IMG/VR virus record: IMGVR_UViG_2617271049_000013
Coordinates: 1-10,234 of that record
Origin: a virus
Taxonomy: Duplodnaviria; Heunggongvirae; Uroviricota; Caudoviricetes
Length of the DNA: 10,234 nt
Strand: one strand, 5' to 3'
Shown here piece by piece: positions 3,819 through 5,383 of this stretch. A program made the position numbers and the translations under genes. The notes beneath the pieces are model-generated. The model saw only the letters and a list, made by a program, of their open reading frames with translations, was not told the DNA's origin and searched no databases. Every line of letters starts with the position of its first letter. The stretch's first letter is position 1.

Positions 3819-4245
3819 ATGACGTGGAAAGACAGGCTTCAGGATGCGTCATTTCGAGGTGTGCCGTTTAAGGTTGAAGAAGAAAGTGCGGGAACCGGTC
3901 GCCGTGTGGAAACACATGAATACCCGAACCGCGACAAACCCTATACCGAAGACCTGGGGAAAATCACTTTCCGCCCGTCCATCACAGCTTATGTGGTGGG
4001 AGATGACTGCTTTGACCAGCGCGATCGCCTGATTGACGCGCTGAATAAACCCGGTCCCGGCACGCTTGTCCATCCGACATACGGTGAGCTGAAAGTCTGT
4101 GTTGACGGGGAAGTTCGGGTCAGCACATCGAAAAGTGAAGGGCGTATTGTCCGCTTTGACCTGAAGTTTGTCGAAGCAGGAGAACTCTCTTACCCCACAT
4201 CAGGTGCGGCGACGGCGCAGACGCTGATGTCATCCTGTTCTGCAC
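3819..4245 (+). CDS. Mu gp43-like DNA circulation protein, N-terminal domain only (truncated by assembly gap)
   Basis: MTWKDRLQDASFRGVPFKVEEES...HEYPNRDKPYTEDLG...LVHPTYGEL...RFDLKFVEAGE matches the remembered DNA_circ_N pattern of Mu gp43-like proteins. GGAG lies 5 nt upstream of the ATG at 3819. The ORF runs into the N run at 4246. Confidence 0.6.
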
Positions 4246-4255
4246 NNNNNNNNNN
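4246..4255. other. Assembly gap (10 N)
   Basis: Literal run of n characters; the true length and content are unknown. Confidence 0.99.
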
Positions 4256-5383
4256 AACTGCATCAGTGACAGCTTCAGCGGTTTCAGTATCGATGGCGTG
4301 GCGGATTTTGTGCAGAACGACGTCGTTGGTAATGTCAGCACAATGCTTGGGTATGTTTCTGATGCGATGAAAGTGGTGGATTCTGCCGTATCGGATGCTG
4401 CCAGGCTGTTGCAGGGGGATATCTCGGTACTTCTGCCGCCACCATCGTCAGGCAAAAATTTCGTTGAGCAGGTGCAGAAAATGTGGCGTACCGGGAAACG
4501 CCTTTATAGTAACGCCAGCGACCTGGTCACCATGATCAAAACGCTTTCTGGTGTCAGCCTCGGCAGCGATTTGCAACCGCGCGGCGTCTGGAAAACGGAC
4601 AGTAAAACCACCGCCACAGCGACGCAGCAGCGTAACATGGTTGCCAGCACCCTTCGTACGACTGCAATCAGCGAAGCGGCGTATGCCGTTACCCGTGGTA
4701 ACCCCCAGACCGGCACGCCTGCTACCGATCTGGATGATGACTACTTTGACATGTTGCAGGAGGAACTTTGCAGCGTGGTGGAGGCATCCGGTGCCAGCCT
4801 GGAGAAGGGGCGGCACGACCAGCTGCTTACCGCGCTTCGTGCGCTGCTGTTAAGCCGCAAGAATCCGTTTGGCGATATCAAATCGGATGGCACAGTACCA
4901 ACGGCTCTCGAAAACCTTGGTTTGGGAGAAGGTTCGGCATTACCCGTTGGTGTGCCTGTTCCGTGGCCTTCAGCCACTCCGCCAACAGGATGGCTGAAAT
5001 GCAATGGTGCGGCTTTTTCTGCTGAAGAATACCCGGAACTGGCAAAGGCTTACCCGACAAATAAATTGCCTGATTTACGCGGTGAGTTTATTCGTGGCTG
5101 GGATGATGGAAGAGGAATTGATAGTGGAAGGGGGATTCTCACTGCGCAATCTCATGGTATGCCGTCTATTTCAGGAACGTTTAATGGTCTTTTTGCTGTT
5201 AAACAAACAAATGGTTTAGGTGGTGTTTCTGTAGCAAAAAGTACAAATGCTGAAACTTTATCTACTTCATCTGGATCAGGTTCCGTGTTTGATTACACGT
5301 TTAATGTCAGCGGTTCGACTCCGGTATCACCAGAACTTCGTCCGCGTAATATTGCATTTAACTATATCGTGAGGGCAGCCTGA
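4256..5383 (+). CDS. Side tail fibre protein, 3' portion (5' end unresolved because of the gap)
   Basis: Frame is open from the gap to the stop at 5381-5383. C-terminal region [19 protein letters not shown]...[23 protein letters not shown]...[17 protein letters not shown]...[14 protein letters not shown] matches the collar/C-terminal pattern of enterobacterial prophage side tail fibres (Stf family). Its stop overlaps the start of the downstream tfa (TGATG). Confidence 0.75.
4905..4930 (+). other. Candidate Hin/Gin/Pin-type inversion crossover site inside the tail-fibre gene
   Basis: CTCTCGAAAACC-TT-GGTTTGGGAGAA is an imperfect 12-2-12 palindrome (9 of 12 arm positions symmetric) resembling hix/gix sites (TTCTTGAAAACC..GGTTTTTGATAA). 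It lies exactly at the codons for the conserved tail-fibre NLGLG junction. Confidence 0.5.

Follow-up and report, generated by a model that had tools for sequence, protein, structure and literature searches.

What does the long open reading frame at 3819-5383 of this prophage fragment encode, and do the ten N within it conceal the missing part of a tail module? The window, meaning the whole stretch of DNA analysed (10,234 nucleotides), is 100% identical to GenBank record HG977190.1 (GCA_000731355.1, E. coli), including the same N run. The record and its lineage were retrieved by exact-protein look-ups of the tfa and acyltransferase products of the window. A preliminary description had read the locus as a Mu gp43-like N-terminal part and a tail-fibre C-terminal part joined across the N run, and had offered two explanations, namely a gap that hides kilobases or a deletion. 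The two parts do lie in one frame, with the domains DNA_circ_N and Collar in a single 519-codon ORF, and the deletion is borne out, with 4,197 bp lost when compared to the relative L009. However, the join is not at the gap; it is found at 4689-4695, 440 nt downstream. With a probability of about 0.93, the 519-codon gene is a deletion fusion in an eroded prophage, the N run is a 5-base placeholder, and the product is most likely a relic.

The fusion gene begins with the ATG at 3819 and ends with the TGA at 5381-5383. The single N run of the window comprises exactly 10 N (4246-4255, an unstranded assembly placeholder). The pre-gap part (3819-4245, plus strand) contains gp43-type codons 1-142 plus one base, includes DNA_circ_N, and runs for 427 nt from the ATG into the N run. 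The frame is open directly after the N run, from 4256 to the stop codon, and continues into the fibre C-terminus, as had been described. The first portion of this post-gap part (4256-4688, plus strand, to about codon 289) is still gp43-type. As written, the pre-gap and post-gap parts are out of frame, since 427 + 10 is not a multiple of three. With TGGAT in place of the 10 N, the pre-gap stretch is 432 nt or 144 codons, and the frame is continuous and reads ...SSCSALDNCIS..., the five bases completing the codons Leu-Asp.

The sequence TGGAT is present between identical flanks in the relatives L001, L002, L007, L009, L010, L011, L012, and L014, and also in L005 and L006. Direct alignment to TUM13936 (L001) shows identical flanks, with the five bases opposite the ten N of the window. 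L007, L010, L011, L012, and L014 are sister assemblies that close the gap in this way, and L007 is the complete chromosome CP099208.1. Identity to the window across all 10,234 bases is 99.78% for L007 and L011, the only two sisters measured. All five sisters have an intact 519-codon ORF that is amino-acid-identical to the repaired ORF of the window, with 2 synonymous differences. Window 3700-4695 matches many complete E. coli genomes as one piece (991 bp versus the 996 bp of the query), and alignment to the relatives finds no foreign sequence at either contig edge of the gap. As read from the sister strains, the N run takes the place of just 5 bases within the gp43-type gene. The source strain could in principle have an insertion swapped for exactly 5 bp and traceless at both contig edges, or it may have ten real bases at the N run, i.e., a frameshifting 5-bp insertion. 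Databases list this exact 519-aa protein for 7 contigs and with 4 NCBI accessions, one of them labelled E. coli O80:H45. It is already public and is listed as a hypothetical protein.

DNA_circ_N (Pfam PF07157) covers residues 7-93 of the repaired protein (116.7 bits, cut-off 21), and Collar (PF07484) covers residues 376-423 (55.6 bits, cut-off 24). The PHROG families are 'baseplate hub' on one half and 'tail fiber' on the other half. Mu gp43 (protein N, PDB 9ki1) aligns to residues 10-202 (E 4.4e-13), and this alignment spans the gap position at residues 143-145. Fibre tips from the PDB align to residues 360-517, and these comprise the short and long tail-fibre tips 9cuy (E 4e-22) and 2xgf (E 2.6e-15). 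The pre-gap part has 97-99% identity to intact E. coli prophage copies, and the 433 nt after the gap (4256-4688) have 97-99% identity to intact E. coli prophage DNA circularization genes. The post-gap translation NCISDSFSG..., which the preliminary description had put forward for alignment to gp43 and to fibre N-termini, matches gp43, whereas the start of this stretch is not fibre.

The gp43-type half is not full length. Its homology to 442-aa proteins stops at residue 291 (56% query coverage), and the DNA homology to the gp43-type gene stops at 4695. The fibre half has neither its own start codon nor its N-terminal segment, and its match begins at nt 62 of the fibre CDS (CDS start 8940 and match start 9001 in L003; 6246 and 6307 in L009). 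The fibre constant region from codon 21 onward (4696-4905, plus strand; the first 20 codons, 61 nt, are deleted) is 99.8% identical to L009 from 6307, and K-12 stfP/ycfK is 99.1% identical to window 4689-4800. The variable receptor-binding C-terminal fibre cassette (4933-5383, plus strand) contains Collar at about 4949-5092 and closes with the stop codon. In phage Mu, gp43 is the tail-tube initiator with a tube-like domain, its helix-rich domain contacts the wedges, and the N-terminus of the fibre docks onto the wedge protein gp48 (PMC11915804). The fusion retains the tube-like domain but only a portion of the helix-rich one, and the first 20 residues of the fibre are lost.

A three-way alignment locates the junction. 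The match to the circularization parent extends to 4695 and that to the fibre parent starts at 4689, with a 7-bp microhomology, TTACCCG, at 4689-4695 (plus strand; codons Val-Thr-Arg 289-291), of which one copy is kept. Each parent gene has a single copy of this 7-mer, as does the window. L009 (GCA_018116365.1) is the best genome for comparison and has the same tfa gene and acyltransferase insert and a complete baseplate module. It aligns to window 2928-4695 at 99.1% and to 4689-7679 at 99.8%. The TTACCCG copies of L009 are at 2110 and 6307, which gives a deletion of 4,197 bp, i.e., 3 x 1,399, in frame. Compared to L009, the window has lost gp43-type codons 292-442, five baseplate genes, and the initial 61 nt of the fibre gene. 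The lost baseplate genes are the hub (gp44/P), the spike (gp45/V), and the wedges gp46/W, gp47/J, and gp48/YmfQ. All of them are present in L001-L004 and L009, in line with the earlier statement that several baseplate genes separate the two parts in an intact module, and no ORF or homology for the hub, spike, and wedge genes was found in the window or the sister assemblies. According to these alignments, the fusion is composed of gp43-type codons 1-291 joined in frame to fibre codon 21 onward. Short direct repeats would have mediated the deletion, either through illegitimate recombination independent of RecA or through slippage during replication. The route may have had two steps, in which an L017-like allele with its 7-mers 77 bp apart came first and a second short slippage came later.

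The same junction is found in L005 and L006, which are independent assemblies with different neighbouring genes and in which the gap position is read through. L005 (GCA_027494185.1) is a 37-kb NCBI contig with a product of 543 aa, and L006 is an ENA metagenome scaffold with a product of 462 aa. Altogether, at least 8 assemblies made independently in different projects contain the junction, CP099208.1 and a 4.78-Mb contig among them, so that it represents a real allele rather than an assembly error. These junction alleles were located by protein search and exact-protein look-ups. This junction is rare: it occurs in 0 of 5,426 complete RefSeq E. coli genomes, and its 32-nt sequence has no exact match in one-genome-per-species contigs or JGI metagenome contigs. 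The fusion is a genuine and ordinary microhomology deletion, with nothing surprising to a specialist.

Two alternatives would make the fusion a product of assembly. An N run in a scaffold can in principle stand for any length, and the 10 N could hide kilobases with either an inserted element or the baseplate genes that are missing; the juxtaposition would then be an artefact. In L65, the complete genome that matches best, an IS200C is located close to this gene. However, that copy is intergenic, upstream of the ATG and away from the gap, and the contig edges of the window have no IS-end sequence; an IS element inside the gap was rejected on these grounds. The flanks of the gap are only 5 bp apart in every relative, with clean edges, and five sister assemblies, one of them a complete chromosome, read TGGAT there. 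A closure showing a full baseplate set, which had been envisaged, is excluded, since the sisters close the gap with these five bases. A fusion junction at the gap was also rejected, as the circularization-gene homology runs 440 nt beyond it: the post-gap sequence is the same gene continued and not the fibre gene. The baseplate genes are missing through the junction at 4689-4695, regardless of gap content, and a multi-kilobase gap is thus left with practically no probability. The second alternative is that the junction itself is a chimeric mis-assembly through the 7-bp repeat in short reads, and the source assembly is indeed a scaffold-level draft with at least 1 N run. Nevertheless, a 7-bp repeat is far shorter than the k-mer of any assembler, and an identical junction in the independent assemblies, CP099208.1 among them, makes a chimera hardly credible.

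Because the post-gap homology is to the gp43-type gene and the junction is at 4689-4695, the completeness of the tail module is independent of the gap. The earlier view that every conclusion on completeness depends on the gap is not upheld, as the module is incomplete whatever the gap holds. For annotation, this N run should not be taken as a possible multi-kilobase gap, and the 142-aa 'DNA_circ_N' call and the 5'-truncated fibre call represent one 519-codon gene.

The fused alleles differ in their surroundings. The window allele has 4 differences from the intact L009 in 865 nt and 0 in 210 nt of flanks. The L005/L006 flanks have 21-30 and 11-15 differences from L009, and on the right flank these start just 16 nt away from the junction. 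Instead of forming a cluster, the fused alleles carry the same junction in two haplotype backgrounds. In L016, the left end is 184 bp further upstream, and the right end is within 2 bp of the same fibre site. L017, the sole genome among the 5,426 complete RefSeq E. coli genomes that spans the junction query, has the same circularization-gene site joined to an imperfect copy located 15 nt ahead of the ATG of the fibre gene, and the two 7-mers of this allele are 77 bp apart. 'Best available microhomology' was rejected as the basis of this endpoint reuse, as 202 7-mers are common to both regions and an 11-mer at the same fibre site is unused. A hairpin or quasi-palindrome was also rejected, as the DNA folds no better than shuffled sequence (z = -0.2, +0.9, and -1.7). 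A single simple deletion alone does not explain the two backgrounds and the endpoints shared with other alleles. Descent through an L017-type intermediate, combined with prophage recombination, could account for the pattern. For work on prophage decay, the breakpoints shared among alleles offer a small lead.

The region upstream of the fusion gene suggests little expression. An intrinsic-terminator-like hairpin with a T run is located at 3775-3810 (plus strand), with a 10-pair stem AAGGCCACCT/AGGTGGCTTT followed by TTTATTTT, and ends 9 nt before the fusion ATG. A promoter/terminator scan found no promoter-like site between this terminator and the ATG. Upstream of the fusion, a deletion has removed the early-to-tail region of the phage. 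Owing to these three features, the fusion is most likely poorly expressed and functionless, and it probably represents an inert relic with weak expression or none. Every partner protein is gone, and the tail module cannot function. Judged from the missing partner genes, no baseplate or tail should be buildable. The element cannot make tails or particles, and its tail module is truly incomplete. The ORF is intact in all alleles seen (519, 543, 462, and 464 aa). The open, in-frame state was rejected as a sign of selection, as a protein search finds only open frames and the intact parent is near-identical; the frame would still be open only because the deletion is recent.

The pattern of alleles and the intact ORF allow two further readings. 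In one, the TTACCCG sites would be a recurrent, sequence-directed deletion hotspot rather than the place of one chance event. The two haplotype backgrounds with a right-flank difference 16 nt away are consistent with this, as are L016, which reuses the right end of the window junction with another left end, and L017, which reuses the left end with another right end. The 7-mer is not privileged among the 202 shared ones, and the 11-mer at the fibre site was passed over. Descent, however, accounts for most of this, since short slippage in an L017-type allele yields the window junction and prophage recombination can move flanks. Furthermore, no breakpoint has hairpin potential above shuffled controls, and the sample is four alleles that were found in a biased way, so a hotspot is considered unlikely. 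In the other reading, the fusion would be a retained working gene, in which the truncated fibre and Tfa mask a receptor or hinder phages in the manner of StfE2. All four length variants keep the ORF, tfa directly downstream is intact, and there is a precedent, as the cryptic e14 fibre chimera StfE2 is reported to block adsorption of phage T2 (PMC12529663). In contrast, only in-frame open versions are visible among alleles that came from a protein search, and the window allele is so close to its intact parent that the time since the deletion is too short for decay to be informative. The terminator, the lack of a promoter-like site before the ATG, the deleted late region, and the absence of the junction from all 5,426 complete RefSeq E. 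coli genomes also argue against a working gene, which appears very improbable. A host-benefit receptor mask formed by the gp43N-fibre fusion and Tfa, with the related idea that TTACCCG is a recurrent hotspot creating such fusions, is likewise quite improbable.

The element resembles e14 of E. coli K-12. It is integrated at the same icd site, with a lambda-type integrase and excisionase on its left and an icd' fragment, iraM, ymgK, ymgL, and ycgX on its right. Its fibre constant region is 99.1% identical to K-12 stfP/ycfK, it has the same P-segment crossover repeat, and it carries pin and mcrA remnants. Both are deletion-eroded remnants of an SfV-type myovirus prophage. The gene set of e14 is intE/xisE ... 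ymfQ, stfP, tfaP, tfaE, stfE, pinE, and mcrA. In contrast to e14, the window element keeps the 3' end of the tape-measure gene, a 176-aa moron, and two thirds of the gp43-type gene, and lacks ymfQ and all other baseplate genes. Of its pin only 69 nt are left, the second crossover site has been lost, and an acyltransferase gene stands in place of the alternative fibre cassette.

Intact e14/SfV-type prophages (TUM13936, L65, OkiPb01675, and L009) have HK97-type head genes and a Mu-type contractile tail module. They share the gene order of the window and have 97-99.8% nucleotide identity to it across the shared segments; the tfa gene of L009 is identical, and its acyltransferase insert is also shared. 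Their tail module comprises a 442-aa gp43-type protein, a baseplate assembly protein, V, GP46, J/gp47, YmfQ, and a full fibre. Mu gp43 has the N-terminal tube-like domain (DNA_circ_N) in common with the window protein, with homology over residues 10-202, but the two are only distantly related in sequence. The window protein is cut at residue 291 of 442, and a fused fibre takes the place of the missing part of the helix-rich domain, which in Mu is in contact with the wedges (PMC11915804). StfE2/StfP2 is similar in being a chimeric ORF in a cryptic e14-type prophage, with a variable fibre tip at its end, tfa next to it, and the same crossover site. However, StfE2/StfP2 arises by reversible Pin-mediated inversion of the P segment and keeps the fibre N-terminus (PMC12529663), whereas the window fusion is the product of an illegitimate deletion, which is irreversible and lies 217 nt upstream of the crossover site, and has a gp43-type N-terminus.

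The remainder of the window has the same character. The integrase (1144-2274; Arm-DNA-bind_1 and Phage_integrase by Pfam, lambda-type) and the excisionase (2252-2497; Exc by Pfam) are at one end. At the other end, window 8362-10234 aligns to L004 11179-13052, with the icd fragment, iraM, ymgK, ymgL, and ycgX. The integrase and excisionase on one side and the duplicated icd 3' fragment followed by iraM on the other are the arrangement of e14-type icd integration. Judged by its sequence, the element is a heavily eroded e14/SfV-type cryptic prophage at icd in E. coli. It presents a clean, base-resolved example of the erosion of such prophages by microhomology deletions.

A second deletion junction is located at 2928-2931, where the early region of the prophage is joined to the tape-measure 3' end. 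The early-region homology is 100% up to window 2931 in other E. coli genomes. The tape-measure remnant (2928-3135, plus strand) comprises about 208 nt; window 2928-4695 aligns to L001 11229-12991, and the tape-measure CDS of L001 is at 9604-11436. Between the tape-measure and gp43-type genes is a 176-aa AT-rich ORF (3227-3757, plus strand; GC 0.32-0.38), which belongs to phrog_5485 of unknown function (E 1e-107) and has no Pfam match. It is annotated as 'hypothetical protein' in L001, L002, and L004 and is absent from L003. This ORF has its own promoter-like site (3164-3191) plus a strong terminator, and it looks like a moron. An Rfam scan of the window found no RNA family at gathering score. 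PADLOC on the ORFs at 1-930, 3227-3757, and 6549-7598 found nothing credible, only a 16-bit chance match to Cas13d.

Downstream of the fusion, the tfa gene for the tail-fibre assembly chaperone is intact (5383-5985, plus strand; Caudo_TAP E 1e-31, phrog_105) and overlaps the stop codon of the fusion gene. A truncated second tfa (5957-6271, minus strand), which covers only Caudo_TAP profile positions 37-130, is a remnant of the alternative cassette. Homology to the relatives stops at about 6272. An AT-rich 1.5-kb insert with an Acyl_transf_3 gene occupies the position that the alternative fibre cassette and pin have in relatives, and mcrA is truncated or broken.

At 4906-4932 (plus strand) is TCTCGAAAACCTTGGTTTGGGAGAAGG, the crossover site on the left of the invertible P segment (Pin type). 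The pattern matches once, against a chance expectation of 0.01, and the site includes the e14 inverted repeat TTGGTTTGGGAGAAGG known from the literature (PMC12529663). A search of the window at <=3 mismatches found the one site at 4906-4929 and no second crossover site, and no inverted partner was found; intact relatives have two sites, and the lineage of the window has one. With only one copy in the window, the invertible segment is frozen, and from its sequence the inversion system within the window is predicted to be dead. Only the last 69 nt of pin are left (window 7757-7825, aligning to L004 10120-10188, with pinE at 9634-10188). The fibre cassette has the opposite orientation to that of TUM13936, with window 4912-6019 aligning to L001 19180-18073.

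Many of the database proteins found in the protein search begin with a near-identical DNA_circ_N part and then continue into unrelated domains. The DNA_circ_N-led proteins at issue are P0007, P0010, P0014, P0017, P0024, P0046, and P0049–P0054, and the domains that follow are resolvase, GpP, GP46, Baseplate_J, DUF2313/Gp48, tape measure, TerL, and sheath. Such varied domains behind a near-identical start suggest that numerous independent deletions have occurred in the E. coli members of this prophage family. Part of these multi-domain proteins may be assembly or gene-calling chimeras.

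The 7-bp junction at 4689–4695, where the gp43-type gene (circ) meets the tail-fibre gene, is carried on two haplotype backgrounds, as seen on comparison with two assemblies of identical junction (L005 and L006), two with other deletion alleles (L016 and L017), and a near-identical relative with an intact tail module (L009). Each of the two further deletion alleles has one endpoint in common with the window. The L016 allele matches the window's fibre end to within 2 bp; the L017 allele shares the circ end, and its right end lies 76 bp upstream of the window's. Either the breakpoints at this junction have been reused, or the junction arose stepwise from an L017-type allele by a 77-bp slippage, combined with recombination.

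Another deletion junction of the prophage remnant lies at 2928–2931. Up to 2931, the early-region DNA beside xis is 100% identical to that of other E. coli genomes, and the tape-measure gene, reduced to its final ~208 nt, abuts it directly, with an overlap of ~4 bp. The remnant contains no replication, lysis, or head genes, and most tail genes are also missing.

The sole surviving Pin crossover site (4906–4932) is located within the fusion gene, and the window holds no second one. Compared with TUM13936, a relative with an intact prophage, the P segment is locked in the reverse orientation. Without a second site, no pin homologue encoded elsewhere in the genome could act on the surviving one. 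In the region 7757–8357, the final 69 nt of pinE precede an mcrA pseudogene, whose ORF (7932–8183) ends after 83 codons. The mcrA homology stops at 8357, and about 460 bp are absent before the icd fragment.

Between the tape-measure and gp43-type genes lies an AT-rich ORF of 176 aa (3227–3757) with a hydrophobic N-terminus, which belongs to PHROG 5485, a family of unknown function. With its own promoter-like site (3164–3191) and strong terminator (3775–3810), the unit (3164–3810) is moron-like. The otherwise similar prophage of FDAARGOS_1337 lacks this ORF.

The left end comprises an AT-rich ORF of 309 aa (1–930, GC 0.31) with neither a Pfam nor a PADLOC match. In the source genome, as judged from the upstream sequence of L007 (a sister assembly) and L008, a 445-aa HEPN_Toprim_N protein adjoins it between icd and the integrase, the position occupied by lit/ymfD/ymfE in K-12 e14. 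The two may be prophage cargo or a defence pair.

Most of pin, together with the right crossover site and the alternative fibre cassette, has given way to a foreign AT-rich insert (6272–7757, GC about 0.30). On the minus strand, this insert contains a 349-aa Acyl_transf_3 membrane acyltransferase (6549–7598), which may be surface-polysaccharide-modifying cargo. L009 has this insert too, together with an intact tail module.
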